Shown: positions 5,290 to 43,877 of the stretch, one piece after another
How positions within the stretch are numbered: the first letter of the stretch is position 1
How the letters are laid out: the number at the start of each line of letters is the position of its first letter
IMG/VR virus record: IMGVR_UViG_3300025858_000011
Origin: a virus
Taxonomy: Duplodnaviria > Heunggongvirae > Uroviricota > Caudoviricetes
Direction: 5' to 3' (one strand)
DNA length: 64,000 nucleotides
Position numbers and translations under genes: made by a program
Notes under the pieces: model-generated
Told to the model about the DNA's origin: nothing
Database searches by the model: none
What the model saw: the letters and a program-made list of their open reading frames with translations, nothing else

Positions 5290-5530
<241 letters not shown>

Positions 5531-5533
5531 TTG

Positions 5534-5616
5534 TACCGAAAGCTGGACTTGAACCAGCATAGCTTACGCCAATGGTTTTTGAAACCATCGTGTCTACCAA
5601 ATTCCACCATTTCGGT
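5534..5616 (-). tRNA. tRNA-Leu(CAA)
   Basis: cloverleaf by eye: acceptor ACCGAAA/TTTCGGT, anticodon loop TTCAAAA, long variable arm, T-loop TTCAAGT. Confidence 0.75.
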
Positions 5617-7701: not shown

Positions 7702-7995
7702 TTACAATTTAAATAGCTCATGTCCGGGTGCTATAAAAATAGGAAATGGACTGTCATTCACACTAATCCCATTTTCAGCAAAAACTGCCAGGCTTTCCTT
7801 TTCCAACATAGGAGCAAGTTCCGGATCATATGTAATTTCAATTACATGTGACCTTCTAGAAAGACTATCAGAAATATCCTTGGACTCACGAAGCCCCAGG
7901 CCAGTTAAAAGCCGAATTTGCCGAATTACAAATATCTTATTCACAAACTTAGATGGCTTAGATAATGTAAGTGTCCAGGTTTTCATTTTTTGCAC
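7702..7995 (-). CDS. hypothetical protein (97 aa)
   Basis: ORF upstream of rSAM pair, same strand. Confidence 0.4.
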   Translation of the reverse strand: MQKMKTWTLTLSKPSKFVNKIFVIRQIRLLTGLGLRESKDISDSLSRRSHVIEITYDPELAPMLEKESLAVFAENGISVNDSPFPIFIAPGHELFKL

Positions 7996-8158
7996 TCCTG
8001 GTTAGTCATTGGTATACCAAAGTCGCGCATCATTCCGCGAAATTCATCGTAGTCTGATGTCATTGCAGTTATAAACTCCTTCATTGCTTTTCCTTTCTGT
8101 TAAGGTTAGTGCGGGTGAGAGGCATCGAACCTCCACGACCTTACGGTCACTAGATCCT

Positions 8159-8957
8159 CTTACTACAATACCTTTCAGTATCCATTTCTGTTGTAGTCTG
8201 GACTATATCATCACCTACAGTTTTATCTGTTTAGGGCTCGGCGTATAGTCTCTGAGGGGTCATTTCGGACTTCCCTGCGGATTATCAATATATCCTATAA
8301 ATTTTTACTTGATAGTCATTCCATAATTATGTATATTATGGTAGACAGATAGTATTATAGGCTTTACGAGTTTCCCGCATATAGCCAAGTACAAATTAGT
8401 TATTTCTAATTAATCGCTCAGTGTAATGAAGATAGATAAAAATGTTCTATATGAGTTATATACATTGCAGAAGCTAACTCCTTCGAAAATAGCTAGGAAA
8501 TTTAAATGCAATCATAAAACCATTCGTAGTTGGTTAAAAAAATATAATATTGCTATGCGTAGCCCTGCAGAATACAATTATTTAGCACGTCCGACACATA
8601 TTAGCCCCACTGATTTACTATTATTCAGTGACATTAGCATTGCTGGGCACATCGCCTATTTGTGTGAGGGATGGCATACTAATAAAACTACCCAATTATA
8701 TTTTTGTAATACTGATCCAATATTAATCAACTTATTCTGTAAAATGTTATTTACAATTTATAGTATTAATCATATTAGATACATCATTATTTCTCCAACT
8801 TTAGAACTATCAACAAAATTTAAAACTCTTTATCCTTCTGCAAAGATTTATATAGAACCGCTTAGAAAAAATCCTATTATACGAATCTATGCTGGAGGAA
8901 AAACATTAGCAAAAGAGTTTATAAATAATGCTTATAAAATATCCTCTTCATTAAGTT
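8159..8957 (-). other. group I self-splicing intron in tRNA-Leu(TAG), inserted after anticodon position 34
   Basis: P ATGCGGGAAACT, Q AATCCGCAGG, R TCAGAGACTATACG, S GATATAGTCCAGAC on minus reading; 5' exon ends in U, intron ends GTAAG (omega-G). Confidence 0.7.
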
Positions 8958-8959
8958 AA
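8426..8959 (+). CDS. HTH-domain protein encoded antisense inside the tRNA-Leu intron (possible homing-endonuclease-like ORF)
   Basis: 177 aa; N-terminal helix-turn-helix LTPSKIARKFKCNHKTIRSWLKKYNI; IAGHIAYLCEG weakly LAGLIDADG-like; stop codon abuts 5' splice site. Confidence 0.5.
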   Translation: MKIDKNVLYELYTLQKLTPSKIARKFKCNHKTIRSWLKKYNIAMRSPAEYNYLARPTHISPTDLLLFSDISIAGHIAYLCEGWHTNKTTQLYFCNTDPILINLFCKMLFTIYSINHIRYIIISPTLELSTKFKTLYPSAKIYIEPLRKNPIIRIYAGGKTLAKEFINNAYKISSSLS

Positions 8960-9135
8960 GTCTAGCGCGTATTCCAATTTCACCACACCCGCATAAAAAT
9001 GTAGCAACTAGTCAGTTTTAGGATTGATCAGATCCCTAATGCTCAAGAGCCCCTCGAGGTAACCGGCGCGTCGAGTTCTTCTTCTGACCCAAGCCTGTCA
9101 CAGTAGACTTTTTAGTGGGCTGCTACAATATCTTT

Positions 9136-9714
9136 TTAGGGCAACTGCCAGTACATATCGTACTTTGAGTAGCTCTCTTTATTTTTCTTTCTACAGATTT
9201 GTGTCTCCACAAATCCCAAGTCCACCAGGTCGATGAATCCATCACCGTTTACATCAGCGTAGGCATCGTATCCGGTATTTCCTCTCACTGCACCCCAGTG
9301 TACCGAAGTATGCACGATGTTAAAGTCGTCATCATTGACGACTTTGTCCCCATTTACGTCACAGAAGACGTGCGGAGGGTTTCCATAAAAACTCGCCAGG
9401 GTATCACTAACAACCAGGGTACGAGTTTTATATACAGCAACGACAAAGAACGTAAGTCTCTCTGTATATTTTTGTACCAAGATCTGTTTCTTTAAACTAG
9501 TTCTGGAGTACGGAATACCCCCGTTCATTGGAATAGGGGCTTCTGGATTTGCGTAGCTTCTTTGGTAAAGTTTAAAATACAGTGGTTTTTCCGCTGGAAC
9601 TTTCCAAGTAATTCTAAGAGTGTCATCAGCAAAAACTGGTACTCTGATTTTTTCGCGTGCCGACACACTTATTACCAATAAAAGAATAAGTGCAATAACC
9701 AATACTTTTTTCAT
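9136..9714 (-). CDS. secreted protein with dockerin-like Ca-binding repeats
   Basis: signal peptide MKKVLVIALILLLVISVSA; DVNGDKVVNDDDFNIV and DVNGDGFIDLVDLGFV dockerin type I-like repeat pair. Confidence 0.55.
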   Translation of the reverse strand: MKKVLVIALILLLVISVSAREKIRVPVFADDTLRITWKVPAEKPLYFKLYQRSYANPEAPIPMNGGIPYSRTSLKKQILVQKYTERLTFFVVAVYKTRTLVVSDTLASFYGNPPHVFCDVNGDKVVNDDDFNIVHTSVHWGAVRGNTGYDAYADVNGDGFIDLVDLGFVETQICRKKNKESYSKYDMYWQLP

Positions 9715-9941
9715 TTTAAAAATCCTTCAATCTTTTGAATAGTTTTTGGCATTAAATGTGCATTTCCCGCCAAGATATCTTTAAGCCGAGATAACTTTAT
9801 CCCAACTTGCTTAGCAAAGTCCTCAGAAGAAACTTTTCTAGTTTTTAATGCAGAAGCCAACTTTTCCGCAAAGATATTTTGTTCCCTGACTGTTCTTTTC
9901 GTTCTGTCAGGAATGTTTTCAAGTAGTTTACTAAATTTCAT
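9711..9941 (-). CDS. XRE-family HTH transcriptional regulator
   Basis: start moved to internal ATG at 9941 (GGAGG SD; avoids overlap with tRNA 3' exon); HTH SEDFAKQVGIKLSRLKDILAGN. Confidence 0.6.
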   Translation of the reverse strand: MKFSKLLENIPDRTKRTVREQNIFAEKLASALKTRKVSSEDFAKQVGIKLSRLKDILAGNAHLMPKTIQKIEGFLK

Positions 9942-9959
9942 AAATACCTCCAAAATTGG

Positions 9960-10226
9960 AGCCTGGGAGAGGACTTGAACCCCCAACCCGCTGATTACCT
10001 TACCACTATAGTTTTCACTACCGATTACTCGTTTGTGGTCTGGACTATGTCTTCACCATCTCAGGTGCAACACGTATAGTCTCTACGGATCCCCTTAGGT
10101 TTCCTCGGCGTTGCCATACATAATATGTAAGGGTTCACCGATACAGTGTTGTACATTCTATAAATTTTTTTCTCTATAGAAGCCCATTTTTTAGGTCAGC
10201 AGCTCTACCAATTGAGCTACCCAGGC
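9960..10226 (-). tRNA. tRNA-Thr(TGT) candidate interrupted by 194-nt group I intron (exons 10193..10226 and 9960..9998)
   Basis: 5' exon GCCTGGG-TA-GCTCAATTGGTAGAGC-T-GCTGA-CCT; 3' exon GTAA-TCAGC-...GGTTCAAGTCC...CCCAGGC-T; unusual C33 makes the anticodon call tentative. Confidence 0.6.
9999..10192 (-). other. group I intron (Azoarcus-like small IC-type core) in tRNA
   Basis: TATGGCAACGCCGAG, GAAACCTAAG, CCGTAGAGACTATACG, CATAGTCCAG elements; ends GTAAG like the tRNA-Leu intron. Confidence 0.65.
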
Positions 10227-10286
10227 TTAAAAGTCACACGGGTTTCCTCGCCAAGGTCCTTACCCCTATGATGCGATCGACGGACA

Positions 10287-10320
10287 TCCGGAGGGCATAT
10301 TGCTTGCTCCGGATTTTTTA
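10287..10320 (+). terminator. intrinsic terminator (plus)
   Basis: CCGGAG..CTCCGG hairpin followed by ATTTTTTAT. Confidence 0.5.
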
Positions 10321-10900
10321 TAATGGATGCCTTGTTGTGACTTGGATTACTATAATCATGATAGACACTTATTGAGAGCGACTCAACGCCTGCCTATTTT
10401 AGATTGGTGATTCCGTAATCCTAAACGTCCCCGCTTCCACGGGTTTCGCTTGATAATACCGTATGGCGACAGTTTGTAACATTGGGCCAACCTTGCCGGA
10501 ATGCCCGGTTACAATTATCAATCATTTGCGTGACCCCTTGCGCTGTAGCAAGATTTAACAATTCACAAGGGATACCCTTTAGGTATTCTCAAATTCACAC
10601 CTTCTTTTGCACATAGTTTACTATGTGAGTTTTAAATAAGTAATGTCACGGGAGACCGAGCATAAGGATTACGATTCCTTGCTAGTCTACCCTTCGATTT
10701 AGGTGCTACTCGAAGTAGCCACCGCGACATTGTTTATTATATAAATAACACATGTGGGAGCGAACCCTTAGTACGGTGAACTCTTTGGGTGTGGTTGCCC
10801 AAAAAGCGCATACTGCTAAGTAGGTAATATCCCCATGAAGGATATTTACCATATTCCACAATCTTGCCCACTTACGCTATAAATTTTTAAGTGATCAAAT

Positions 10901-11164
10901 TCACATGTGTCGCGTTTTAAATAACATTTTTACTACTTCAAACAAATCTGGTGCAGATCCGGTCGTCTTGTCGTCTGGATTATCGCTGAATCCGGTACAA
11001 GTCTCTAGCCAGACTGGGTCAAAATTCGCCGGCCAGAGAAACCATCCCATCCGGATTCCATGTAGGTTCCCAGTTACATGTGCGGTATTATTCACACATC
11101 CCGAGTGTGCATCTCCTGGAACATTTCGACGATGAACACATTTATAACAATCTGGAGTGGCCAT
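10901..11164 (-). CDS. hypothetical Cys/His-rich protein (87 aa)
   Basis: ORF; overlaps start of NADAR gene by 23 nt. Confidence 0.35.
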   Translation of the reverse strand: MATPDCYKCVHRRNVPGDAHSGCVNNTAHVTGNLHGIRMGWFLWPANFDPVWLETCTGFSDNPDDKTTGSAPDLFEVVKMLFKTRHM

Positions 11165-11591
11165 TCAAATTTGTTCTCACCTCCATTAATAGCTTTCCAA
11201 GAACGTTTTCTCCTGGTATTTCCATACAGTGTTCGCATAAACAATTTCCCCAAAAATTGTCATGCCAGTAATTTCCCTCTTGTAATGGTTGGTCTCCAGT
11301 GTCACAAAGAAGACCGCTGAACGGTTCCTTGCTGAATTTTTTAACCAGGAGTTCCTTCATTAGGTCTACCTTTACTTGATTCCAATCCGGTCGTAAGGGA
11401 TTTACCAATCTTCCGAGTCGTTTTGCCTGACCGGGAGTTCCGGCTGCAATTCTCGCACGTTCATTGTTATCAAGTGATTTAGCCGCCTGAAACGCGTTTT
11501 CTACAGAATGATAAATTTTATTATCAAATTCTACATCAGCAGGATAAAAATTTGAAAGAAACTCGTATTTTCCTATAAATAACACTATCAT
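11142..11591 (-). CDS. NADAR (YbiA/DUF1768) domain protein, ADP-ribose processing
   Basis: 149 aa; FLSNFYPADVEFDNKIYHSVENAFQAAK is the hallmark NADAR N-terminal motif. Confidence 0.65.
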   Translation of the reverse strand: MIVLFIGKYEFLSNFYPADVEFDNKIYHSVENAFQAAKSLDNNERARIAAGTPGQAKRLGRLVNPLRPDWNQVKVDLMKELLVKKFSKEPFSGLLCDTGDQPLQEGNYWHDNFWGNCLCEHCMEIPGENVLGKLLMEVRTNLNGHSRLL

Positions 11592-11776
11592 CGTAGTTTC
11601 CTTTTATAATTTATAATCGTTATTCCATTAAGTTGTTTTGTTTGTGGATCGATGCGCATGATTGCTTCTACTTCTGTAGATCTGCAGGCTCGTGGATTTC
11701 CAAATGAAATATACATTACATCTGATTCTTTATCATATGAAAACGACACTGTTTCTGAAGACAGTTCTTCACACAT
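11588..11776 (-). CDS. DUF2283-like small protein
   Basis: 62 aa; YDKESDVMYISF matches the YDxExDxLYI signature. Confidence 0.4.
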   Translation of the reverse strand: MCEELSSETVSFSYDKESDVMYISFGNPRACRSTEVEAIMRIDPQTKQLNGITIINYKRKLR

Positions 11777-11921
11777 ATAGCCTCCTTGATTAAATTAATT
11801 TGTGCTGGCCCGCAGACCAGCACATGTAAGAATTTCACTTACATAATATGCCTTTGGGAATCGAGCCCAAATAGACTCCCATCTATATAGATGGGGGTGT
11901 TTCCATTACACCATTGCATCG

Positions 11922-11994
11922 CTCCAGGAGGAGGGCTCGAACCTCCGACCTGATGGTTAACAGCCATCCGCTTCCACCACTGAGCTACCCTGGA
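11922..11994 (-). tRNA. tRNA-Asn(GTT)
   Basis: acceptor TCCAGGG/TCCTGGA, D GCTCAGTGGTGGAAGC, anticodon loop CTGTTAA, T GGAGGTTCGAGCCCTCC. Confidence 0.7.
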
Positions 11995-12002
11995 GTAGTA
12001 CT

Positions 12003-12446
12003 TCAATTGAGCAAATCTTTACACCAACGAAGTATTTGCTTAGCACTCTTTTCTATATTTGAAATTTTTGTGTCACCATTGTCTGGCACCGATGCCAGTT
12101 GGGCCCTATAAGCTGGTGTCCAATTCTTTTGTTTATATTCTTCGGGGATGGAGATATATATTGTCAATACTCCATTTCCAGGGTCATTATAAGTTATCTG
12201 TTCAGGAGTAATTGGTACTAATTCTTGAAGATCAGCGGATCTTCTGATTACCAAAGACCGTCTGCTGTTGGCAATCACTATTTTATTACAGAAGATAATC
12301 ACCTGATAGGCCTCATCAATATCCGCATCTTCGTCCCGCACAATAATTTCGATTTGCTCCTTCTTATTAATCCGAGCTTCAAAATATGAAAACTCGGGAG
12401 TACCTTCTGTAGCAAATTCAAGTGATTCCATAATCTGTACTGACAT
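12003..12446 (-). CDS. hypothetical protein (147 aa)
   Basis: ORF. Confidence 0.5.
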   Translation of the reverse strand: MSVQIMESLEFATEGTPEFSYFEARINKKEQIEIIVRDEDADIDEAYQVIIFCNKIVIANSRRSLVIRRSADLQELVPITPEQITYNDPGNGVLTIYISIPEEYKQKNWTPAYRAQLASVPDNGDTKISNIEKSAKQILRWCKDLLN

Positions 12447-12653
12447 ACATCACCTTTCTTTTAAATTATAGTATTAGCGGCCTCGTAAGGGCCAGTCCTG
12501 GCGGAAACCTGCTTGTTGAAGTTCAAGCTCTCCCGCAACCAGACCTATCGAATATGTCAGCCGGTCCCCCATATTGCAAATCTGGGTTACAGCCTATCTG
12601 ACATATTACCTCAATCTCCTGGATATCGGCCATTAACTTGCCGTTGCTAACTG

Positions 12654-12724
12654 CTCAGGGAGAGGGGCTCGAACCCCCGTTTGTAGATCCAAAATCTACA
12701 GTCCTACCATTGAACGATCCCCGA
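12654..12724 (-). tRNA. tRNA-Gln(TTG)
   Basis: acceptor TCGGGGA/TCCCTGA (one GU), D GTTCAATGGTAGGAC, anticodon loop TTTTGGA, T GGGGGTTCGAGCCCCTC; overlaps 3' end of ORF 12696..13358 by 29 nt. Confidence 0.55.
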
Positions 12725-13358
12725 GTGACTCTTGAATTTCTCGCTGTTTCTTCTGTTTTTCCCGATTGCGATTATAGATAATCAACCGGTCCCAAGCCTC
12801 ATCTCGATCTTTAACATGGTCAAGGATGAGAGACATATTAGCATCGAATAACTTTCGAGCTATAAGCTTCCTTTCCTCATCAGTGTTATTCTGGTAGTAC
12901 CTAACAGTATCAACGTAATACCTGGACGTCTTAACAACGAACTTCCAGGGATACTTAACTTGGTACATTTTCCTTTTTTCAAACGAAAATGGAGGAATGA
13001 AACACTTCTTTTGTTGCTCTGTAAGAGAGTTGAAAGTCTTCTCTCCAATTTCTCTGAGACCCTGATCGAACCGAAACTCAAAGAAGAAACCATTCCCGAA
13101 TTTAGTTTTGGGGGTGCTGTTTTTTCCTCGCGTAAACCATTCCCGGTTCACAAGAGGAAGAATGCTCTTAAGTATCGGTCCTTCTGAAGATCGCAGCAGG
13201 TCGGGACGAACCTCATAGGTATGTTTGTATCCCCAGAATTGGGAAGAAGTTTTTACTTCGATGGGACGCTCTTTCCAAATCTCGTTCCATCTCCGTAGGA
13301 GACGCCGTGCCTCTTTTTGTTCTAACTCTTTTTTATGTTTTCTGCTTTCTCTGCTCAT
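12696..13358 (-). CDS. hypothetical basic protein (220 aa)
   Basis: ORF; Lys/Arg-rich. Confidence 0.5.
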   Translation of the reverse strand: MSRESRKHKKELEQKEARRLLRRWNEIWKERPIEVKTSSQFWGYKHTYEVRPDLLRSSEGPILKSILPLVNREWFTRGKNSTPKTKFGNGFFFEFRFDQGLREIGEKTFNSLTEQQKKCFIPPFSFEKRKMYQVKYPWKFVVKTSRYYVDTVRYYQNNTDEERKLIARKLFDANMSLILDHVKDRDEAWDRLIIYNRNREKQKKQREIQESLGDRSMVGL

Positions 13359-13410
13359 CGGCTATTACCTGATTAGAGTTAATTGCACAAACCTAATTAT
13401 CTAATAGTTG

Positions 13411-13494
13411 TGCGGAGAGAAGGATTTGAACCTCCGAAGCCTTACGGCAGCGGATTTACAATCCGCCCCCTTTGTACCACTTGGGTATCCCCGC
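13411..13494 (-). tRNA. tRNA-Tyr(GTA)
   Basis: acceptor GCGGGGA/TCTCCGC, anticodon loop TTGTAAA, long variable arm, T GGAGGTTCAAATCCTTC. Confidence 0.75.
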
Positions 13495-13495
13495 A

Positions 13496-13530
13496 TAAAA
13501 AAAGCCCGTCAGATTAGATCCAACGGGCTT
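13496..13530 (-). terminator. intrinsic terminator (minus)
   Basis: AAGCCCGT..ACGGGCTT hairpin + T7 on minus strand, 5' of tRNA-Tyr. Confidence 0.6.
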
Positions 13531-13656
13531 ACCGAATCATCCTGACATACTAATCCACACTATTTAATAAATTTTGATATGTGAGGGATATTAACGTCAA
13601 GAAGTTCATATATAAATATAATATATTCGAATGTAATGTGCAAGTGAATTCTTAAA

Positions 13657-13941
13657 TTATTTTCTTTCTTCCGGCTCTCCACAGTAAATGCACCCATACT
13701 CCTTAGGATTATAAGAACATATATGATCAGGAGAAACTGGGCAATACCAACCAAGATCTCGTTCACAACGGGAACAAACGGCGGAGGAGGAGTCACCTGG
13801 GTCTTCTATTTCTTTTACATCATGCTTACATCTGCACAATGCATCACGCGCAAGGTTACTAAGCCTTATGGTTTCCCGCATTTGTTCATCCGTAAGTTCC
13901 GCTCCGGACTCCCAAGCTTCTACCAAATTTTCATGATTCAT
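13657..13941 (-). CDS. Cys-rich zinc-finger-like hypothetical protein
   Basis: 94 aa; multiple CxxC pairs. Confidence 0.45.
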   Translation of the reverse strand: MNHENLVEAWESGAELTDEQMRETIRLSNLARDALCRCKHDVKEIEDPGDSSSAVCSRCERDLGWYCPVSPDHICSYNPKEYGCIYCGEPEERK

Positions 13942-14024
13942 TTTTTGCGCCTTGATATACTAACTGTTACCACAACACTATAAGTATCAATAATGCCATA
14001 GGATTTTCCTTTTTTTTAAATTAG

Positions 14025-14098
14025 TAGGCCCGGGTGGGCTTGAACCACCGACCTGACGCTTATAAGACGCCGGCTCTAACCAACTGAGCTACAGGCCC
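14025..14098 (-). tRNA. tRNA-Ile(TAT)
   Basis: acceptor GGGCCTG/CGGGCCT, D GCTCAGTTGGTTAGAGC, anticodon loop CTTATAA, T GGTGGTTCAAGCCCACC. Confidence 0.65.
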
Positions 14099-14100
14099 AT

Positions 14101-14188
14101 AATATATAGTAGTAGGGACAGGATCAACCTGCATACATGGCCGCAGCCCTGCTCTAATTTGAGCTACCCTACTTTATTTGTATTATTG
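14101..14188 (-). pseudogene. tRNA-like element, degenerate
   Basis: acceptor AGTAGGG/CCCTACT and D-arm GCTCAAATTAGAGC present but no convincing anticodon or T arms. Confidence 0.25.
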
Positions 14189-14276
14189 CGGAGAGTAGAG
14201 GATTTGAACCCCTGGAGCTTTTAGGGCCCTACAGTTTTCAAGACTGCCGCCATAAGCCAGACTCGGCCAACTCTCC
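14189..14276 (-). tRNA. tRNA-Ser(TGA)
   Basis: acceptor GGAGAGT/ACTCTCC, anticodon loop CTTGAAA, long variable arm, T AGGGGTTCAAATCCTCT. Confidence 0.75.
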
Positions 14277-14462
14277 AATTATTTAAACAAGAAACCTACA
14301 ATGTCAACCAATGTCGCCTTAAAGACTTTGTGCCCACGATGTCTTGCCTGACATTGAGTTAGGCTACTACCAAATGTCATCTTTTTCAAGGAGGGAACTT
14401 TAAAAACTTTCCTTCCCTTTTGCAACGCGATTAGTTTTGCTTTGAATGTCATAACACTCTCC

Positions 14463-14702
14463 TCAATCTTGATAAACAAACGTTAAATCAGTATTCTCGG
14501 GAAGATTGCTAAATTCACAAATAATATCTTCTAATAAAATTTCTTCAGCCTCTTTTAACGAGAACTCTTTTTCAAATATTGCTACTTTTTCTTTTAATGC
14601 TAAAAGAGTAATTTCTTTGATATCAAGCCTCTTTATAAGCTCAGACTCCTTGGAATTTAATCTCACCAGGAGATCCAGCGGCTGCATTACTGACTTTATC
14701 AT
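14463..14702 (-). CDS. hypothetical protein (79 aa)
   Basis: ORF. Confidence 0.35.
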   Translation of the reverse strand: MIKSVMQPLDLLVRLNSKESELIKRLDIKEITLLALKEKVAIFEKEFSLKEAEEILLEDIICEFSNLPENTDLTFVYQD

Positions 14703-14862
14703 TTTTTAATTTGGTTACTTGTGTGAATACTGCTCCACAACGTTTGCATACTTCAATATTCACTGATAGGTCATCGTTTGAAATATTTATAGGAGCGTAG
14801 TGTGTAACACTTTTACCCCAAAATTCAATTCTCTTATGACCAAATAAACAAAAAATATTCAT
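14641..14862 (-). CDS. zinc-ribbon hypothetical protein (73 aa)
   Basis: CxxC...CxxC; ORF. Confidence 0.4.
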   Translation of the reverse strand: MNIFCLFGHKRIEFWGKSVTHYAPINISNDDLSVNIEVCKRCGAVFTQVTKLKNDKVSNAAAGSPGEIKFQGV

Positions 14863-14883
14863 ATTAATTTCTGATTAAAATAG

Positions 14884-14956
14884 TGAGACCGGCGGGGTTT
14901 GAACCCACGACCCGTTGCTTAAAAGGCAACTGCTCTGCCAACTGAGCTACGGTCTC
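14884..14956 (-). tRNA. tRNA-Lys(TTT)
   Basis: acceptor GAGACCG/CGGTCTC, anticodon stem GTTGC/GCAAC, loop CTTTTAA, T GTGGGTTCAAACCCCGC. Confidence 0.8.
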
Positions 14957-14977
14957 GTTAATGTAAATTAAGTATCG

Positions 14978-15050
<73 letters not shown>

Positions 15051-15080
15051 TTTAGTTCCTATTATTCTTATACCAATAAG

Positions 15081-15165
15081 CGGAGAGAACAGGGATTGAA
15101 CCTGTGTATCCTTTCGGATAGTCTCGGTTTAGCAAACCGGCCCCTTACCACTTGGGTATCCCTCC
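15081..15165 (-). tRNA. tRNA-Ser(GCT)
   Basis: acceptor GGAGGGA/TCTCTCC, anticodon loop TTGCTAA, long variable arm TATCCGAAAGGATA, T ACAGGTTCAATCCCTGT. Confidence 0.7.
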
Positions 15166-15175
15166 AAAATTTTAT

Positions 15176-15210
15176 GATAAAAAAAGCGTAGCCCTGTAGC
15201 AGGGCTACAG
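15176..15210 (-). terminator. intrinsic terminator (minus)
   Basis: GCGTAGCCCT..AGGGCTACAG hairpin + T-run on minus strand. Confidence 0.55.
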
Positions 15211-15504
15211 CTTCTGGACCATAAATCGATCATAGACTGGAAAGTCGGTTATAGTTCTCGATTCAGACCAACGCACCAATGTACTAGTACGATACGCCGC
15301 TAAATCCACTATAAAGGTCTCCCTGCTCCTTGCAGGCCTACCCATCGAGGTTTCCCCAACTCTTCGTATCACTCGAACTTCCAGAAGATTTCGTTCTGGT
15401 TGAATTCGAACTACTTCAAGTTCAAGTGCTACTCGGCAACCAGTTATGCTGTCGTGTACTGTTCTTGGTCCAGGGGCGATTATTTGTCCAACTTCAAATC
15501 TCAT
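15205..15504 (-). CDS. YDRF/YDKF-family small protein
   Basis: 99 aa; C-terminal ...FPVYDRFMVQKL; member of the repeated family, GC-rich codons. Confidence 0.55.
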   Translation of the reverse strand: MRFEVGQIIAPGPRTVHDSITGCRVALELEVVRIQPERNLLEVRVIRRVGETSMGRPARSRETFIVDLAAYRTSTLVRWSESRTITDFPVYDRFMVQKL

Positions 15505-15515
15505 TCAGTAGTCTC

Positions 15516-15788
15516 CTATAATGGGACAACCACCAACCGATCATAAATTACAAAATCTGAAAAACTAAATCCACCCACTTCAAGGTGTGCATCCTCAAAG
15601 TACTCTGAACTAACCCGATGACTTGAATCGACCATACTATTACCAGATAGTATTTTAACTTGAAACATGGGGGAATCACCAATATCCACCACCTCTAACT
15701 TTGCGTTATTTTTTAAAGAGGTGTAATTGTAGTGGTTTGAAAGGGGGCCTGGTATAATTATGTCCCCTACTTTAAAACGTCTTTCCAT
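15516..15788 (-). CDS. YDRF/YDKF-family small protein
   Basis: 90 aa; KVGDIIIPGP...FVIYDRLVVVPL. Confidence 0.55.
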   Translation of the reverse strand: MERRFKVGDIIIPGPLSNHYNYTSLKNNAKLEVVDIGDSPMFQVKILSGNSMVDSSHRVSSEYFEDAHLEVGGFSFSDFVIYDRLVVVPL

Positions 15789-15855
15789 GTGTAGTTCTCC
15801 AATGATAAAGAGGGAGGACTGGCCTCCCTCTCATAACAACCAGCGGACCTGTGAC

Positions 15856-16182
15856 TTAGGCCTTAAGGGCGTTCATGATAACGTCCACCTTAATGCCGAA
15901 GGTCTCCTCGAATTCCTTTGCCATCAGTTCCTGCGTCCAGGTCAAGCTGTGCAGCTTGGCCAACAGGGCGGTAATGGCATTGAGATCGTAACTCGGGGTA
16001 CCGAGCTTCTTGCGCTGTTCGGTCAATTCGGCTTCGATGGTTGCACGCTCACGATCGCCACGGAGATACTTCTCCGCAACGGAAACACGCGCTTGCTGCA
16101 GGTCGGCAGTCTTTTGTGCCTCAGATTTGTCTTTCGGGTCTTTTCCGTAGAATTGCTCCCAAAGAGTTATGGACTTTTCCAT
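15856..16182 (-). CDS. hypothetical protein (108 aa), GC-rich
   Basis: ORF with GC-rich codon usage unlike its neighbours. Confidence 0.5.
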   Translation of the reverse strand: MEKSITLWEQFYGKDPKDKSEAQKTADLQQARVSVAEKYLRGDRERATIEAELTEQRKKLGTPSYDLNAITALLAKLHSLTWTQELMAKEFEETFGIKVDVIMNALKA

Positions 16183-16242
16183 AGTTAATTCCTTCTTTTT
16201 TTATGTTAATGCATTAACACCCTCCCGGCTGGAGGCGTGTTG

Positions 16243-16317
16243 TGGACGCTACTGGATTTGAACCAATGATCTCCTGCTTGTAAGGCAGGCGCTTTGAACC
16301 AGCTGAGCTAAGCATCC
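16243..16317 (-). tRNA. tRNA-Val(TAC)
   Basis: acceptor GGATGCT/AGCGTCC, anticodon stem CCTGC/GCAGG loop CTTACAA, T ATTGGTTCAAATCCAGT. Confidence 0.65.
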
Positions 16318-16559
16318 CAGTATTTCTTTAAACAGATCTCACACTCTGGATCCCCACATCCAAGATATGATGCACTGTTTAATTCTTCCATTTTTAAAAA
16401 CTCTGCGTCTAAGTACTCATCCACTTCCTCATGATACTTGAAGTGTCTTTCCCGACGACTGGTGCTTTTTTTTAGAAGTTGTTTGTTTTTGCCTTTATAA
16501 TATTTTATACTAGGAAGGCAGTATATACAAAAAAATAATTTCGGTCTTTTTCTTTTCAT
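16308..16559 (-). CDS. zinc-finger-like hypothetical protein (83 aa)
   Basis: CIYC...CGDPECEIC. Confidence 0.4.
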   Translation of the reverse strand: MKRKRPKLFFCIYCLPSIKYYKGKNKQLLKKSTSRRERHFKYHEEVDEYLDAEFLKMEELNSASYLGCGDPECEICLKKYWDA

Positions 16560-16562
16560 AGT

Positions 16563-16637
16563 GCGGTACGTACGAGATTTGAACTCGTGTTACTGGCGTG
16601 ACAAGCCAGCATCCTGGGCCCCTAGATGAACATACCG
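16563..16637 (-). tRNA. tRNA-Asp(GTC)
   Basis: acceptor CGGTATG/CGTACCG, anticodon stem CTGGC/GCCAG loop TTGTCAC, T ACGAGTTCAAATCTCGT. Confidence 0.7.
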
Positions 16638-16638
16638 T

Positions 16639-17142
16639 TTAACGATGGATATCGTAGGCCAAGGTCATAGCCGCCAAGAGTTTTGCATCATGAAAATGTT
16701 CTGCCTTTAGTGTTTTCCTGGGCACCCACCGATTTACCAAGTGCTCGTGTCCTTCGACACTATCAACCTTTAGTTTGGCTTCAGAGCTATCGACCAAGTA
16801 ATAATAATACAGAAATGTTCTTTCAGTAAAGCATCCCGGGGAAGAATACACAAAACCCAGATTCACCATCGGTGTAAGTGGAATAATGCCGGTTTCTTCA
16901 AACAGTTCCCGTTCAGCAGCTTCCTCGGGAGACTCTCCAGGGTCAATATTACCTGCTGGTAATTCCAAAAACTGTACCAGCCCTTGATTTATAAATGGGC
17001 CGATGCGAAATTGCTGAGTAAGTAACAAATTATGTTCTTTTGCAATTTCAGTTTCTACCAGGATGGCAACTACGTCTGTTTTTTTGACGTAAGAATAGTC
17101 AATCTTGCCCTTGGGATATCTTTCAATTGTAATATAGGCCAT
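16639..17142 (-). CDS. Nudix hydrolase
   Basis: Nudix box GNIDPGESPEEAAERELFEETGI; start moved to internal ATG 17142 to avoid the tRNA-Phe overlap. Confidence 0.75.
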   Translation of the reverse strand: MAYITIERYPKGKIDYSYVKKTDVVAILVETEIAKEHNLLLTQQFRIGPFINQGLVQFLELPAGNIDPGESPEEAAERELFEETGIIPLTPMVNLGFVYSSPGCFTERTFLYYYYLVDSSEAKLKVDSVEGHEHLVNRWVPRKTLKAEHFHDAKLLAAMTLAYDIHR

Positions 17143-17157
17143 AATATTCCTTTTAAG

Positions 17158-17230
17158 TGGTAGCGAATGGAATTGAACCACCGACACGAGGCTCTTCAGG
17201 CCACTGCTCTACCAACTGAGCTACGCTACC
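17158..17230 (-). tRNA. tRNA-Phe(GAA)
   Basis: acceptor GGTAGCG/CGCTACC, D GCTCAGTTGGTAGAGC, anticodon loop CTGAAGA, T GGTGGTTCAATTCCATT. Confidence 0.7.
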
Positions 17231-17235
17231 AATAT

Positions 17236-17709
17236 TTAATATGTTAGTGGAAATGGATCTCTTTCTGATAAATCCGAAATTAGAGTTCCGTTCAAATGAT
17301 CAACTTCATGTTGAATTATAATTGCAGACGTCCCGCGGACTCCCTCAGTTGCAATTCTTCCTGTTCTATCCATCGATCTTACTTTAATACTTTTAGATCG
17401 TAAAACAGGAACGAGCATGCCCGGACAACTTAAACATGCTTCCCCTTTAAGTGTTGTTTGCGAAGAACGTTTAACAATCTCAGGATTTATAAGAACCGAA
17501 ATATTATCATTGGGCTCTTTTACAAGAATAACGGCCTTATTAATACCCAACTGTGGGGCAGCAAGACCGATGCCCTTAGTTTTTATTAATACCTCCACCA
17601 TTTGTGCAACGATGGAATTAGGGGCAAAAAGATTTTCTAATTCTTCAGGTAAAATACTTTCGGCCTTAACCCGAAGTCTAGGATCACCTAGTTGTAATAT
17701 TTCTTTCAT
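17236..17709 (-). CDS. def: peptide deformylase
   Basis: GIGLAAPQ, EACLSCPG, QHEVDHLNG, the three PDF motifs. Confidence 0.85.
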   Translation of the reverse strand: MKEILQLGDPRLRVKAESILPEELENLFAPNSIVAQMVEVLIKTKGIGLAAPQLGINKAVILVKEPNDNISVLINPEIVKRSSQTTLKGEACLSCPGMLVPVLRSKSIKVRSMDRTGRIATEGVRGTSAIIIQHEVDHLNGTLISDLSERDPFPLTY

Positions 17710-17714
17710 TATTC

Positions 17715-18089
17715 TTATACCCTTTTTTTAAATTCTGTAAGTTTTATTTCTTTTGCACAAAAGATCCCATCTCGCTCAATTCCATCTAATTTAAGATAAA
17801 TTCCTTTATTCCAAAATTTATCCCAATCTCCAAGATCCGAGGGAAGATGATGTTTTATTAAAATTGGCTCTTTAATTTCAATCTTCCATATTTCAATGTC
17901 GATGTCATCTACTACAACAAATGTTCTGTAATGCCGCGCAAGAAGATCTACTTCTTCATAATCACTGCAAAAAAACAACATACCTCGTTTGGCAGCTGTC
18001 CAAACGTAAGGGGTATAAACTGTTTCATACTTACCTGTTGCCCATGGGGAAACCAAATTCCCAAACTGTCTTACTAAAAATTTATACAT
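17715..18089 (-). CDS. hypothetical protein (124 aa)
   Basis: ORF. Confidence 0.5.
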   Translation of the reverse strand: MYKFLVRQFGNLVSPWATGKYETVYTPYVWTAAKRGMLFFCSDYEEVDLLARHYRTFVVVDDIDIEIWKIEIKEPILIKHHLPSDLGDWDKFWNKGIYLKLDGIERDGIFCAKEIKLTEFKKRV

Positions 18090-18482
18090 AGTTTCCTTTA
18101 TAAAATTAAGTTGTGATGTGTTCCCATGGTCCTACATAATAAATATTGGCACACACATGGCATCGTAACTTATACTTAGGTTCTTCTTTATTAGGAAATT
18201 GGGTGATAATATATTTCCCCAAAGTTTTGCACTTAGGGCACTCAAATTTCTTTTCTACTTTGTTAAGCACTTCGCTGGAATTCATAATTAATGTTTCTCC
18301 TTATAATAAATAAGGGTTACATTCTCCCCAAACATGCCAAGAAACATTTTATGTACTTGTTATATCGCAGTTACTTCATATCCAATAGCTTGTAATTCAG
18401 TAACTGCTTCTTCCACGTCTTGACTATGATAAGCACCGATACCACGTATAATTTGTATCATAATATTTCCTTTCTTAAATAG

Positions 18483-18556
18483 TAGTGGCGGGAGGAGTTG
18501 AACCTCCGACCCTCGCCTTATCAGAGCGATGCCCTAACCAACTGGGCTACGCCACT
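18483..18556 (-). tRNA. tRNA-Ile(GAT)
   Basis: acceptor AGTGGCG/CGCCACT, D GCCCAGTTGGTTAGGGC, anticodon loop CTGATAA, T GGAGGTTCAACTCCTCC. Confidence 0.7.
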
Positions 18557-18770
18557 ATATCTCGATTCTTGGTGTCACTGATACATATACCCAGGATTTC
18601 TTTGACGTATCCCAGGTTCTGCTTATATCAAGACTCCGTACAATTGTTCCAGTAATTTCTTCGAAAACTTTGATGGCTGCTTCCACAGCAAGCTCAAGAT
18701 TTTCTTTTTCTTTCTTAATTGCCTCAGCGTATGTAGCAGGAGCAACTGTTATCGCGGTATCTTCTGCCAT
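18555..18770 (-). CDS. hypothetical protein (71 aa)
   Basis: ORF. Confidence 0.4.
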   Translation of the reverse strand: MAEDTAITVAPATYAEAIKKEKENLELAVEAAIKVFEEITGTIVRSLDISRTWDTSKKSWVYVSVTPRIEI

Positions 18771-18824
18771 TTATTTTCCTTTATAATATAAGTAATTTTT
18801 TTAAAGTTTCCAAATAAAATATTG

Positions 18825-18896
18825 AGGCCACGATGGGATTCGAACCCATGATCACAGTTTTGCAGACTGTTGCCTTAACCTCTCGGCCACACGGCC
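18825..18896 (-). tRNA. tRNA-Cys(GCA)
   Basis: acceptor GGCCGTG/CGTGGCC, 3-bp D stem, anticodon loop CTGCAAA, T ATGGGTTCGAATCCCAT. Confidence 0.7.
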
Positions 18897-19130
18897 TTAT
18901 TTTTGTGACATAATGTTATAACAGTTGATACACAGTGACCTTACTAGTAAATGAGATGGACACTGTTCACCACATCTTCTGCATGCTAGTATTTTTATAG
19001 TATATTGCTTCTTGTTAATGGAAACAATTCCTGCAATTGCTATAAATGCTATAAACAGAACAATACTCAATATTATGTACAATTTCTTCTCCTTATTATT
19101 ATTGCCAGGATTATGAGTATAATTATCCAA
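18897..19130 (-). CDS. small membrane/zinc-ribbon hypothetical protein
   Basis: TM helix + CRRCGEQC...CINC. Confidence 0.4.
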   Translation of the reverse strand: MDNYTHNPGNNNKEKKLYIILSIVLFIAFIAIAGIVSINKKQYTIKILACRRCGEQCPSHLLVRSLCINCYNIMSQK

Positions 19131-19209
19131 ATAATAATGGATAATATCGTTGAAAAACCAAAAATAAATACTGCTATTAAAAAGGCATAAAGTATCATTT
19201 CATGGTTAG

Positions 19210-19446
19210 TCATAATCTAAACCTCGGACAAGTTGGATCCAATTTGGCCATTCTATCACAAAGTTTATTGAACCTTATCTTTATAGAATAAAGATCTTTG
19301 CTGATATTTTCTGCCAGGGCTGCCCCACATGAGTATCCATCTAATATTCTATAATAAGCTCGATATGCGGCCTTAGCCTGTTTTTGAAGAGCAAGTATTT
19401 TAGGATCTGTAGTCTTATTTTGTTTCATATTCACATCCATCTCCAA
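19210..19446 (-). CDS. hypothetical protein (78 aa)
   Basis: ORF. Confidence 0.4.
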   Translation of the reverse strand: MEMDVNMKQNKTTDPKILALQKQAKAAYRAYYRILDGYSCGAALAENISKDLYSIKIRFNKLCDRMAKLDPTCPRFRL

Positions 19447-19682
19447 AAGTATCCGCTACTGCCCAGTCCCAAGATAAATTAACTTTTTTACTTTGATTTG
19501 CATAAAAATCCTTTAAATAATAGTAGTACCAAGTTGCACTTACTTGTATACTACCATTGTATACGGTGAATTTGGATTAATTTCCGGAGGAATTGGCTTA
19601 GGATTCGCACAACATAATAAACACGCTAGAGCAAATATTACTATGTACTTCGTAACGCATTCCCCTTTATAAATTTAACTGC

Positions 19683-19969
19683 GCCCTCCCCGGGACTCGG
19701 ACCCGGAACCTACGGATTCAAGATTATGTTAGTTTCCTAACGTCTTGGACTTTCTCTTTACCGTATCATATCTCTATGACTTAGGTAGTAGCCGTCAAGT
19801 CTCTACACTTCCCATCAATATTTATATTGACGGTTTAGCTCGGGATTGCCATAAAGTAATGCTACTTTTTAGGTTTCCCCGAATTTGACTACTTACACTT
19901 ATAAAATTTCTTTTATAAGGCCCAAATTTTTTAGAAGTCCGTTGCTCTGTCCAATTGAGCTAAGAGGGC
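19683..19969 (-). tRNA. tRNA-Arg(TCT) interrupted by 213-nt group I intron (exons 19933..19969 and 19683..19719)
   Basis: 5' exon GCCCTCT-TA-GCTCAATTGGACAGAGC-A-ACGGA-CTTCT; 3' exon AA-TCCGT-AGGTT-CCGGGTCCGAGTCCCGG-GGAGGGC-G; 5' exon ends U, intron ends G. Confidence 0.7.
19720..19932 (-). other. group I intron, subgroup IC3-like, inserted after anticodon position 36
   Basis: AGTAGTCAAATTCGGGGAAACCTAAAAAGT, TTATGGCAATCCCGAGCT and GGGAAGTGTAGAGACTTGACGGCTACTACCTAAGTCATAG closely match the Azoarcus pre-tRNA-Ile intron (GUGUCAAAUUCGGCGAAACCUAAGCG, UAUGGCAACGCCGAGCC, GAAGGUGUAGAGACUAGACGGCACCCACCUAAGGCA). Confidence 0.75.
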
Positions 19970-20033
19970 AAAACTGGCGCAGTCGATGGAATGCACTCTC
20001 ATTATGTGCATCCCATCTATGCACTATGTTTAC

Positions 20034-21059
20034 TTATATTTCAAATGCCTTTGCTTTAACCCATTTTCTATTTGTTAATAGCCATTCTTTTCGAACAACT
20101 ACTGACGCATAAACGGGATTATTATTCAAAAGCATACATTGTCCTATAAGCTGTTCATTACGAAGACTTACTACCTGAACGGAATCTACAGTCTCATCAG
20201 TTTCAGTAATAAGCGGATCATCAATCAATTCACTGACGATCTTTCTTGCCAAAAGCATCTCTTCAGCTTTTGCTTTATCATAATTTGCAAGAACTTCATC
20301 GATGGTTGACACATTTGCATCGATATGTACGTAGGTTTTATAGTCAACAGTTTTTTTGACATCGATGTCTTTTGACAATCGAATTGCTGCCGTACCATAA
20401 CAGGTGCGGATCAACGCGTCAAATACTTCCCGAAAGAATTCTTCATTAGGGCATCTTTCGATGCCAAATACCACACCATTGATTAAAATGATAGCGCCAA
20501 CCTGACCCTTTACAGGTTCAAATTGAACTACGAATTCATCCAATTCTTTCTGAAATTTCTCGTAGAAGTATATCAAATGCCCCTCACTACGTGAAATTCC
20601 TGATTCATTATTAAATCTGGTGATATAAGGCCATAGCTTAGAGTAAGACTCTTTTCCTTTTAATGCAGTAGCATCTGCACGAAGTGCCCATGGTAAAATT
20701 GCTAATGACTTTTTACCACGCGACAAATGACCGCCCTGTGTTTGTTGAATACAGGCGCAATCATTATACTGCTTTGTTTTACCCTTTGTAACATATCCCA
20801 TGCGCATCATCGCATGATCCTGGGCACTTTCTTTGGTCATATAAGATGCATGTGCCGGTATAATGATGCTTTTATCAGTTACATTGATAAACGTAAGATT
20901 ACCATATGCTGAGTTTGTTACCTCGGCATTAGTAGATGATACAAAGTCTTCACATTGAAGTCCTTTGTCTAATAACAATGGAATCATCGTGAAAACTCCT
21001 ACGTGCTGCATATTTCCAACTACGCATCCTCGTAGTATATCTCTCGTATTAGTAAGCAT
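20034..21059 (-). CDS. hypothetical protein (341 aa), partner of vWA protein
   Basis: ORF abutting the vWA gene (2-nt gap). Confidence 0.55.
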   Translation of the reverse strand: MLTNTRDILRGCVVGNMQHVGVFTMIPLLLDKGLQCEDFVSSTNAEVTNSAYGNLTFINVTDKSIIIPAHASYMTKESAQDHAMMRMGYVTKGKTKQYNDCACIQQTQGGHLSRGKKSLAILPWALRADATALKGKESYSKLWPYITRFNNESGISRSEGHLIYFYEKFQKELDEFVVQFEPVKGQVGAIILINGVVFGIERCPNEEFFREVFDALIRTCYGTAAIRLSKDIDVKKTVDYKTYVHIDANVSTIDEVLANYDKAKAEEMLLARKIVSELIDDPLITETDETVDSVQVVSLRNEQLIGQCMLLNNNPVYASVVVRKEWLLTNRKWVKAKAFEI

Positions 21060-22790: not shown

Positions 22791-22920
22791 TCAGTTCTTC
22801 AAAAAATAAACATTAGGAGTAGGACTGAGGTTGTCTTGTTTATTTTTCATTCGAAATATCTGAAACAGCGTCAAGTCTCCTAATACAATAAAATGGTGGT
22901 AAGTTTATAGTTATGTTTTT

Positions 22921-22990
22921 CGAGCGGGATTTGAACCCGCCACCGATTGATTATAAGTCAATTGCTCTACCAAATGAGCTATTCTGAAAT
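22921..22990 (-). pseudogene. tRNA-like gene with anticodon loop CTTATAA (Ile-TAT-like) but unpaired acceptor
   Basis: good D (GCTCATTTGGTAGAGC), anticodon (ATTGA/TCAAT) and T (GCGGGTTCAAATCCCGC) arms; acceptor TTCAGAA vs TCGAAAA does not pair. Confidence 0.3.
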
Positions 22991-23010: not shown

Positions 23011-23090
23011 TTACGACAAAAGGATTTGAACCTCTAAATTACGGTACCCGGGAGGATTACCGTCGCGTCTGCCAATTCCGCCATATCGTA
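23011..23090 (-). tRNA. tRNA-like gene with aberrant 13-nt anticodon-loop region (anticodon undetermined), CCA encoded
   Basis: acceptor TACGATA/TGTCGTA, D GCGGAATTGGCAGACGC, T AGAGGTTCAAATCCTTT, 3' ACCA; anticodon arm ACGGT-AATCCTCCCGGGT-ACCGT. Confidence 0.35.
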
Positions 23091-42650: not shown

Positions 42651-42668
42651 TGACGTGAAACTTGGCTA

Positions 42669-43816: not shown

Positions 43817-43833
43817 CTAGCCTCCTTTCATAG

Positions 43834-43870: not shown

Positions 43871-43877
43871 CCCTCCT

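Follow-up and report, generated by a model that had tools for sequence, protein, structure and literature searches.

The 64,000-nucleotide (nt) stretch of DNA examined here (IMG/VR virus record IMGVR_UViG_3300025858_000011; hereafter the window) carries 25 tRNA genes, all on one strand. In three of them, those for tRNA-Leu(UAG), tRNA-Thr(UGU) and tRNA-Arg(UCU), a group I intron interrupts the anticodon loop, a claim of an earlier note on this DNA that is now supported by the agreement of Rfam, ARAGORN, the pairing of the internal guide sequence in helix P1, fold statistics, covariation and homologues. The loci can be accounted for as three compact group I ribozymes of the bacterial tRNA-loop class, the Leu intron being in addition a putative composite mobile element (probability about 0.85).

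Split tRNA Genes of the Window

The split genes and their introns all lie on the minus strand and are composed as follows (a slash within sequences marks the splice site).

8958..8992, minus strand: tRNA-Leu(UAG) 5' exon, 35 nt, ending ...CTAGACTT, last base U34 (ARAGORN -i, spliced cloverleaf)
8159..8957, minus strand: Leu group I intron, 799 nt, at 34/35, starting with A and ending ...GUAGUAAG (Rfam, ARAGORN)
8109..8158, minus strand: tRNA-Leu(UAG) 3' exon, 50 nt, beginning AGGATCTAG (ARAGORN)
Leu junctions: ...CUAGACUU / AACUUAAUGAAGA... and ...GUAGUAAG / AGGAUCUAG; spliced anticodon loop CUUAGGA
10193..10226, minus strand: tRNA-Thr(UGU) 5' exon, 34 nt, ending ...GCTGACCT (C32, C33, U34)
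9999..10192, minus strand: Thr group I intron, 194 nt, at 34/35, without an open reading frame (ORF), ending GUGGUAAG (Rfam, fold z-score)
9957..9998, minus strand: tRNA-Thr(UGU) 3' exon, 42 nt, CCA encoded (ARAGORN; register with intron-less phage tRNA-Thr genes)
Thr junctions: ...GCUGACCU / AAAAAAUGGGC... and ...GUGGUAAG / GUAAUCAGC; spliced anticodon loop CCUGUAA
19933..19969, minus strand: tRNA-Arg(UCU) 5' exon, 37 nt, ending ...GGACTTCT (U36)
19719..19932, minus strand: Arg group I intron, 214 nt, at 36/37, without an ORF (Rfam 81.6 bits, fold z = -5.4)
19681..19718, minus strand: tRNA-Arg(UCU) 3' exon, 38 nt, beginning AATCCGTAGG
Arg junctions: ...GGACUUCU / AAAAAAUUUGGGCC... and ...AUAAUCUUG / AAUCCGU; spliced anticodon loop CUUCUAA

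Default ARAGORN called none of the three split genes in the window. Run in intron mode and with no prior information, it recovered all of them: tRNA-Leu(tag) at c[8109,8992] with an intron of 799 nt, tRNA-Thr(tgt) at c[9957,10226] with an intron of 194 nt and tRNA-Arg(tct) at c[19681,19969] with an intron of 214 nt. Three further intron-mode calls overlap ordinary tRNAs and are artefacts. A scan of the window with Rfam at gathering thresholds matched the model RF00028 (Intron_gpI) to the Arg intron (19726-19944, 81.6 bits, E 3e-19) and the Leu intron (8180-8435, 72.0 bits, E 2.5e-16), and returned also 21 tRNAs and a GOLLD RNA. The Thr intron was matched in a permissive scan (10018-10202, 36.2 bits; E 1.3e-5 over the whole window, 8e-8 locally), below the curated gathering score of 50 bits, so that a check against this model, which the earlier note had suggested, bears out the Arg and Leu introns but leaves that of Thr under the threshold.

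The boundaries previously given for the Leu (8159-8957) and Thr (9999-10192) introns agree with ARAGORN. Those of the Arg intron (19720-19932) have to be moved to 19719-19932, because the former boundary yields an anticodon loop of 8 nt and a tRNA that ARAGORN cannot type. With exons joined by hand to products of 85, 76 and 75 nt for Leu, Thr and Arg, respectively, ARAGORN draws a canonical cloverleaf with a 7-nt anticodon loop for each; the acceptor stems, described before as perfect in every case, comprise seven Watson-Crick pairs in tRNA-Leu and tRNA-Thr, whereas that of tRNA-Arg includes one G-U pair (T7-G66). In all three genes the base at -1 of the splice site is U and the intron closes with a terminal G (at 8159, 9999 and 19719), insertion falls after position 34 (Leu, Thr) or 36 (Arg), and the core motif strings quoted from the introns are present where they had been placed, all as first reported. 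None of the other 21 ARAGORN tRNAs in the window reads TAG, TGT or TCT; as the decoders Leu(UAG), Thr(UGU) and Arg(UCU) are encoded nowhere else in it, splicing would be needed for the island to supply them.

Ribozyme Structure and Proposed Splicing

In all three introns, a short guide lies just ahead of P2 and is complementary, wobble pairing included, to the three bases that end the exon. The Leu intron contains in addition the following elements, including an ORF on the opposite strand.

8159..8421, minus strand: Leu ribozyme core (internal guide sequence, P2-P9, terminal G), 263 nt (Rfam alignment, RNAalifold)
8417..8420, minus strand: Leu internal guide UGAG, pairing with CUU and intron base A1 to form P1, with U-G at the splice site
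8945..8952, minus strand: 5' strand of the P1 extension (AAUGAAGA), pairing with 8425-8432 and closing the ORF-bearing loop L1
8425..8432, minus strand: 3' strand of the P1 extension (UCUUCAUU), complement of the ORF start ATGAAGA
8426..8959, plus strand: ORF of 177 amino acids (aa), antisense to the tRNA and filling loop L1; helix-turn-helix plus predicted LAGLIDADG-fold domain

P1 of the Leu intron covaries: in the homologous locus L036 the exon ends in UUU and the guide reads UGAA (CUUA/UGAG in the window, UUUA/UGAA in L036). Across four homologous tRNA-Leu(UAG) intron cores, RNAalifold finds compensatory changes in 25 of the 67 predicted pairs, and an equivalent of the 8-bp P1 extension is formed by different sequences in L036, L038 and L040. 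The Thr guide UGGG (10183-10186) pairs with CCU and A1, giving a P1 of 4 bp, and the Arg guide UUUGGG (19921-19926) pairs with the anticodon UCU and the following AAA, so that P1 of this gene is built from the anticodon itself, as in the Azoarcus type.

Compared with dinucleotide shuffles, the folds of the Thr and Arg introns have z-scores of -4.9 and -5.4, respectively, and hairpins P2, P4-P6, P8 and P9 are present in the minimum-energy folds of both. The P7 pseudoknot was read by eye, and the Thr core was drawn from the Rfam alignment and a single-sequence fold. P7 of the Arg intron is compensated relative to the tRNA(CAU) introns of Rhodocyclaceae (loci L184 and L244; GACUU/AAGUC against GACUA/UAGUC), as is P9. 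Chance resemblance is excluded by the z-scores of the Thr and Arg folds together with 72-77% identity, over ~190-210 nt, to bona fide bacterial and viral tRNA introns.

From these features we infer that all three introns are self-splicing. Each pre-tRNA would be transcribed with its intron inside, and the internal guide would hold the last three exon bases (CUU in Leu, CCU in Thr, the anticodon UCU in Arg), the U at the splice site forming a wobble pair with G. An external guanosine would attack after that U; the terminal G of the intron would then occupy the guanosine site and the freed 5' exon attack the 3' splice site, giving an intact tRNA.

Relatives of the Introns in Viral and Bacterial Genomes

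A 19-nt core of the Arg intron (CAAATTCGGNGAAACCTAA) has matches in 30 IMG/VR contigs, 24 of which have at least one split-tRNA call by ARAGORN, nearly all of these calls spanning the motif. The split types are tRNA(CAT) at 36/37, tRNA-Leu(TAA) at 34/35, tRNA-Arg(TCT) at 34/35 and tRNA-Asn(GTT), and in one contig (L022) a pair of split tRNA genes lies within 1.4 kb. In GTDB the core occurs in at least 119 genomes; among the matches listed, the motif falls inside 95 split tRNAs (CAT 46, Arg(CCT) 24, Leu(TAA) 15 and a few others) and the carriers are Betaproteobacteria, cyanobacteria, Patescibacteria and Acidobacteria. The exact 19-mer is absent from the Thr and Leu introns of the window.

With CAT, Arg(CCT) and Arg(TCT) introns, the Arg intron shares 72-77% identity (for the GTDB part, among the matches listed). 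It is nearest, among the ORF-less introns in the matches listed, to the tRNA(CAU) type, and the tRNA(CAU) introns of bacterial genomes, with which it is colinear at 69-75% identity, are among the best matches listed. The Thr intron has its closest ORF-less relatives, among the matches listed, in Leu(TAA)- and Arg-type introns (74-77% identity), and the Leu core is closest to the Thr intron of the window itself (71%). On this pattern of identity, two lineages are indicated: the Arg intron (36/37) would be of the Azoarcus/tRNA(CAU) type and the Thr and Leu introns (34/35) of the tRNA-Leu(UAA) type, lineage tracking insertion site in the window introns and their nearest relatives. The traits of the bacterial tRNA-intron class (subgroup IC3) are found in the position at 34/35 or 36/37 of the anticodon loop, the compact size and the 72-77% identity.

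The intron of Azoarcus pre-tRNA-Ile(CAU), a member of subgroup IC3, is inserted after position 36, measures ~200 nt and has no ORF, like the Arg intron of the window; both form P1 by pairing the anticodon triplet with a guide of three bases at the 5' end of the intron. The type was represented here by introns L184 and L244 of Rhodocyclaceae, relatives of Azoarcus, and the colinearity with it, which had been claimed earlier and is confirmed by the 69-75% identity and the compensated P7 and P9, extends over P2, P3 (GUCAAAUUCGG.GAAACCUAA), P6, P7, P8 and P9. The window intron differs in its host gene, Arg(UCU), in a guide GGG instead of GUG, in being AT-rich, in a P8 region 11 nt longer, in the compensated P7 and P9 and in residing in a phage-like genome. 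With the tRNA-Leu(UAA)-type introns, the Thr and Leu introns share insertion at 34/35 after U34, a 3' end GUGGUAAG or GUAGUAAG and a short P1; between the Thr intron and viral tRNA-Leu(UAA) introns, identity stands at 74%. However, the hosts in the window are Leu(UAG) and Thr(UGU), and the Leu copy bears a 530-nt insert in L1 with an antisense gene.

The tRNA-Arg(CCU) introns of Agrobacterium and cyanobacteria (36/37) are 74-76% identical to the Arg intron among the matches listed. Some introns of this type carry LAGLIDADG genes (PF03161; PMC13011429), so that a LAGLIDADG-type protein in a tRNA intron is common to them and the window; however, the Arg intron of the window has no ORF, and the LAGLIDADG-like gene is found instead in the Leu intron, antisense and outside any Pfam family. 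In a 2026 survey of 333 bacterial tRNA group I introns, 81% belonged to subgroup IC and only 12 had endonuclease genes (PMC13011429).

A megablast search of 8000-20000 against 50,697 phage records gave no match. Split tRNA genes, unannotated, were seen in two GenBank records of large phages. In the isolated 490-kb jumbo phage Atu_ph07 of Agrobacterium (MF403008.1, ~112890-113251; L168 1251-1612), a 278-nt intron interrupts a tRNA-Leu(TAA) gene that is not annotated as a tRNA and is overlapped at its 3' exon by a hypothetical-protein coding sequence (AUZ94936.1). In the 484-kb uncultured phage LR756508.1 (L167 1000-1650), ARAGORN calls a split tRNA-Arg(tct) whose 175-nt intron is 73% identical to the Thr intron of the window; a putative split tRNA-Lys(ttt) with a 193-nt intron, an ARAGORN call alone, adjoins it. 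Matches of the Thr intron in Kolpuevirus and crAss-like phages were set aside, as they belong to an intron of the DnaB helicase gene and not of a tRNA.

The Antisense Gene of the Leu Intron

The extra 530 nt of the Leu intron lie in loop L1, downstream of the 5' splice site and ahead of the guide, and are occupied by the antisense ORF, which the earlier note had missed. Its ATG falls in the 3' strand of the P1 extension, and the 5' splice site runs through its stop codon TAA (T is intron base 1, AA are exon bases -1 and -2), an arrangement found in all four copies examined. An identical protein is encoded on JGI contig 3300009694 Ga0116170_10000006 (204,345 bp), four homologues have 47-51% identity, and a profile search adds at least 14 full-length clusters (at 50% identity); the family is without prior annotation. 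The same search finds numerous proteins in which the N-terminal helix-turn-helix module stands in tandem; in one of them (P0006) it is repeated in front of a C-terminal HNH nuclease domain.

AlphaFold models the protein with a pLDDT of 89 over the full length and 93 over the C-terminal domain, and the predicted domain has the alpha-beta-beta-alpha-beta-beta-alpha order of LAGLIDADG enzymes. These enzymes carry a catalytic acid at the end of the first helix, and in the ORF family the pair E81-G82, at the end of the first helix of the domain (motif SIxxHxxYLCEGW), is invariant in 19 of 19 members; by its position in the helix, E81 would correspond to the catalytic Asp/Glu. The protein is regarded here as a presumably dimeric, single-domain, LAGLIDADG-like homing endonuclease with a helix-turn-helix, for which the fold is reasonably supported and the activity a predicted one. 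It would most likely act as a dimer, cut intron-less tRNA-Leu(UAG) DNA and so drive homing of its intron.

Antisense genes occur in other tRNA introns as well: HNH ORFs of ~150 aa are present in the IMG/VR tRNA-Leu(TAA) introns L007, L022 and L027 (685-704 nt), antisense to the tRNA in L007 and L022 (two of three) and sense in L027. Antisense homing endonuclease genes are also known from nuclear rDNA group I introns (e.g., L2066; PMC9548176). These share with the window an endonuclease gene on the strand opposite to the ribozyme, but they are His-Cys box genes in eukaryotic rDNA, whereas in the window a gene predicted to have the LAGLIDADG fold lies in a phage tRNA intron.

Distribution of the Gene Family and Mobility

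The ORF lies antisense within a tRNA-Leu(UAG) group I intron in the window, L036, L038/L163, L040/L162, L165 and L304. A further copy, L037 (Logan SRR12022132), ends at the contig edge with its 3' exon off the contig; its 5' exon closes with four T's after the anticodon stem and is apparently one base longer than in the other copies. An ARAGORN call of tRNA-SeC(tca) in L165 was rejected as a mis-split tRNA-Leu(UAG). The exons of the ORF-bearing genes differ, with anticodon stems CUAGA/UCUAG or CAGGU/ACCUG. Free-standing copies flank, on one side or the other, an uninterrupted tRNA of anticodon TAG in L039 and L164, and in L041 the ORF adjoins a 90-nt tRNA. The locus L040, from a 183-kb contig that shares the Leu(UAG) composite intron, has side features at 438-674 (-) and 3169-3582 (-): a permuted-tmRNA-like match (45 bits against a cut-off of 47) at one or the other of these positions, and a PDDEXK_5 gene adjoining tRNAs. 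The endonucleases of tRNA-fMet introns belong to PDDEXK_5.

The free-standing and embedded copies match the pattern predicted by models of endonuclease invasion or collaborative homing (PMC3984707). In collaborative homing, as reviewed there for cyanophage psbA/F-CphI, a free-standing endonuclease and an ORF-less intron converge on one site; the endonuclease-like family of the window likewise occurs both free-standing beside its target gene and inside the intron of that gene. In contrast to that system, the target is a tRNA gene and not a protein gene, the activity is a predicted one, and a search of IMG/VR with a conserved P4 motif for an ORF-less tRNA-Leu(UAG) intron returned only ORF-bearing copies. 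More than 120 IMG/VR contigs contain the predicted target, the intron-less arm GCTAGACTTAGGATCTAG; without its intron, the arm of tRNA-Leu(UAG) reads GCGCTAGACTTAGGATCTAGTG. A search by tblastn of the ORF family against 120 viral loci with an intron-less tRNA-Leu(TAG) arm found no neighboring homologue. The clade is either free-standing by an intact tRNA(TAG) or lodged, always antisense, in L1 at U34/A35. The Leu(UAG) intron and related copies may thus show how a mobile intron first arose in the tRNA genes of huge phages. This reading is tentative and less likely than not; if it is true, the ORF clade and the antisense HNH genes of viral tRNA-Leu(UAA) introns would together make antisense endonuclease genes a general solution for mobile introns housed in untranslated, heavily processed tRNA transcripts.

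That three introns in one island suggest active mobility, as proposed before, holds in part, because a putative mobility gene is present in the Leu intron alone, those of Arg and Thr being ORF-less, and because five independent assemblies lack an intron-less allele. Where they overlap the window, these assemblies, each from another sample, have 99.96-100% identity to it; the Leu locus is the same in all of them and the Thr locus in the two that reach it. They do not demonstrate ongoing mobility. The source samples come from anaerobic digesters (JGI 3300009694, 3300019213 and 3300019209; SRR5007244 and SRR7976325). Vertical descent, or else movement that depends on outside help, is probable for the Arg and Thr introns. 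Two flanking proteins (341 aa, 20034-21059; 192 aa, 9136-9714) have no relatives in IMG/VR, which leaves no comparison of intron-plus and intron-minus genomes within the phage lineage. The 341-aa protein (minus strand), directly upstream of the split tRNA-Arg, matches the Pfam family ARPP-1 (E 9e-26).

Alternative Explanations

One or more of the introns, most plausibly that of tRNA-Thr, might be a decaying, splicing-defective relic and the split gene a tRNA pseudogene. The sub-threshold Rfam score and the P1 of 4 bp fit such decay, as does C33 in the anticodon loop CCUGUAA of the spliced product, by which the gene could be impaired. U33 is near-universal in tRNAs; it is found in all 21 unsplit tRNAs of the window and in the spliced Leu and Arg tRNAs, and the intron-less phage tRNA-Thr(TGT) genes read CTTGTAA. 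C33 is unchanged in independent assemblies, and it makes the -2 pair of the Thr P1 C-G instead of U-G, which strengthens that helix; co-evolution of exon and intron, RNA editing or a weakened tRNA are possible origins, and the intron may have reshaped its own exon by this U33-to-C change. The core helices P2-P9 of the Thr intron can moreover all be drawn and are recovered in a minimum-energy fold with z = -4.9, its sequence retains 74-77% identity to Leu(UAA)- and Arg-type introns, the acceptor stem formed by its exons is perfect, their alignment with functional tRNA-Thr genes is in register, and the window has no second tRNA-Thr. A relic is therefore improbable. The locus was also considered as a mis-split tRNA-Asn(GUU), an artefact described in PMC13011429, and this was rejected: no other boundary combines U(-1) with a terminal G and a loop of 7 nt, and the intron-less tRNA-Thr genes align in register.

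The protein of the Leu intron could be a DNA-binding regulator or an RNA maturase on a LAGLIDADG fold rather than a homing endonuclease. WhiA illustrates that this fold can be non-catalytic, and some intron maturases are built on it. Several negative results weigh against the endonuclease: the C-terminal domain has no match among Pfam and PDB sequence families; the 19 family members gave no hits to the LAGLIDADG models of Pfam and a profile search of PDB sequences none to LAGLIDADG proteins, helix-turn-helix being all that was found in either; Foldseek with the ORF model returned nothing significant from the PDB; and around the antisense ORF promoter-like sequences are as frequent as in shuffles, the Bacteroidetes-type -7 motif TAnnTTTG not being found. 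However, the invariant E81-G82 is an acidic residue and glycine of the kind that ends the LAGLIDADG helix, and the helix-turn-helix module occurs also in HNH nucleases. The gene is always in or directly beside a tRNA gene, with anticodon TAG wherever it is readable except in L041, as expected of a homing element, and the intron RNA that an antisense-encoded protein would help cannot serve as the message for it, action in trans still being conceivable. A regulator or maturase is accordingly doubtful, though a more serious alternative than a relic. A third possibility places the contig in a Bacteroidales chromosome or a large plasmid, its introns then being ordinary bacterial tRNA introns. The NCBI entry for the identical ORF reads 'MAG TPA: helix-turn-helix domain-containing protein [Bacteroidales bacterium]', the two flanking proteins lack IMG/VR relatives, and the 64,000-nt window contains no capsid, portal or terminase gene, which is why the phage label is likely and not proven. 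The 25 one-strand tRNA genes, interleaved with small ORFs, the GOLLD RNA, the PHROG matches (primase, ligase, NADAR, peptide deformylase, NUDIX and metallophosphoesterase) and the lack of any family for most ORFs speak for a phage. So do the primase, whose only relatives in the phage collection, at ~25% identity, are phage proteins, and the 204-kb source contig. The ORF family is found in IMG/VR contigs of 106-276 kb and has no relative in 185,579 GTDB species genomes, and the Leu composite intron is likewise confined to IMG/VR viral contigs and missing from those genomes. A bacterial origin is thus about as improbable as a decayed Thr intron, and the window is likely a phage, consistent with a huge phage.

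Setting in the Literature

All phage introns known at the time of an earlier review lay in protein genes, despite the many tRNA genes of phages (Hausner et al., 2014; PMC3984707). In the single report of introns in phage tRNA genes, those of Lak phages were later called 'enigmatic' and left unclassified (Devoto et al., 2018; bioRxiv 10.1101/356790). Like the window, the Lak megaphages, huge phages of a Bacteroidota host, have several tRNA genes with inserts, one of them tRNA-Thr(TGT), but the inserts of the window are demonstrably group I. No description of group I introns in phage tRNA genes was found in the literature searched, an incomplete library. The earlier statement that intron-containing tRNA genes are uncommon in phages therefore reflects these publications but not the sequence data, in which most motif-bearing IMG/VR contigs hold a split tRNA: the introns of the window belong to a known class whose host context is under-described yet common.

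The window and dozens of similar loci make classical self-splicing tRNA introns a regular feature of large phage genomes. Standard annotation overlooks the split genes, as the default ARAGORN run and the unannotated gene of Atu_ph07 illustrate, so that the tRNA repertoires of huge phages, and arguments on codon usage drawn from them, are systematically incomplete. The Leu(UAG) family, with its free-standing genes and composite introns, offers a natural series for the union of an endonuclease with a ribozyme.

Other Features of the Window

Within the tRNA island lies the GOLLD RNA (25669-26107, minus strand), a full-length model match of 165.5 bits. A tRNA-like gene at 23011-23090 (minus strand) was found by Rfam (43.9 bits) and missed by ARAGORN; its anticodon stem ACGGU/ACCGU surrounds a 13-nt loop (AAUCCUCCCGGGU). 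There are two tRNA-Ile(TAT) genes (14024-14098 and 22915-22989, minus strand) and one tRNA-Ile(GAT); the TAT anticodon is unusual in bacteria.

A 73-nt element at 5467-5539 (minus strand) is near-identical to the L11-binding GTPase-associated center of 23S rRNA (helices 43/44: GGGAUGUUGGCUUAGAAGCAGCCAUCAUUUAAAGAGUG). It looks like an isolated mimic of an rRNA domain within the tRNA island, has its own closing stem, abuts the 3' end of tRNA-Leu(CAA) and matches positions 1082-1155 of the Rfam large-subunit rRNA model with 33-38.6 bits (E ~1e-8). At a distance of 2 kb, an ORF of 97 aa (7702-7995, minus strand) weakly resembles ribosomal protein L7/L12 in its C-terminal domain (Pfam E 2.5e-5). 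At ~42000-44000 the sign of the GC skew reverses and the genes pass from the minus to the plus strand, which may mark a replication origin, a terminus or a module boundary.

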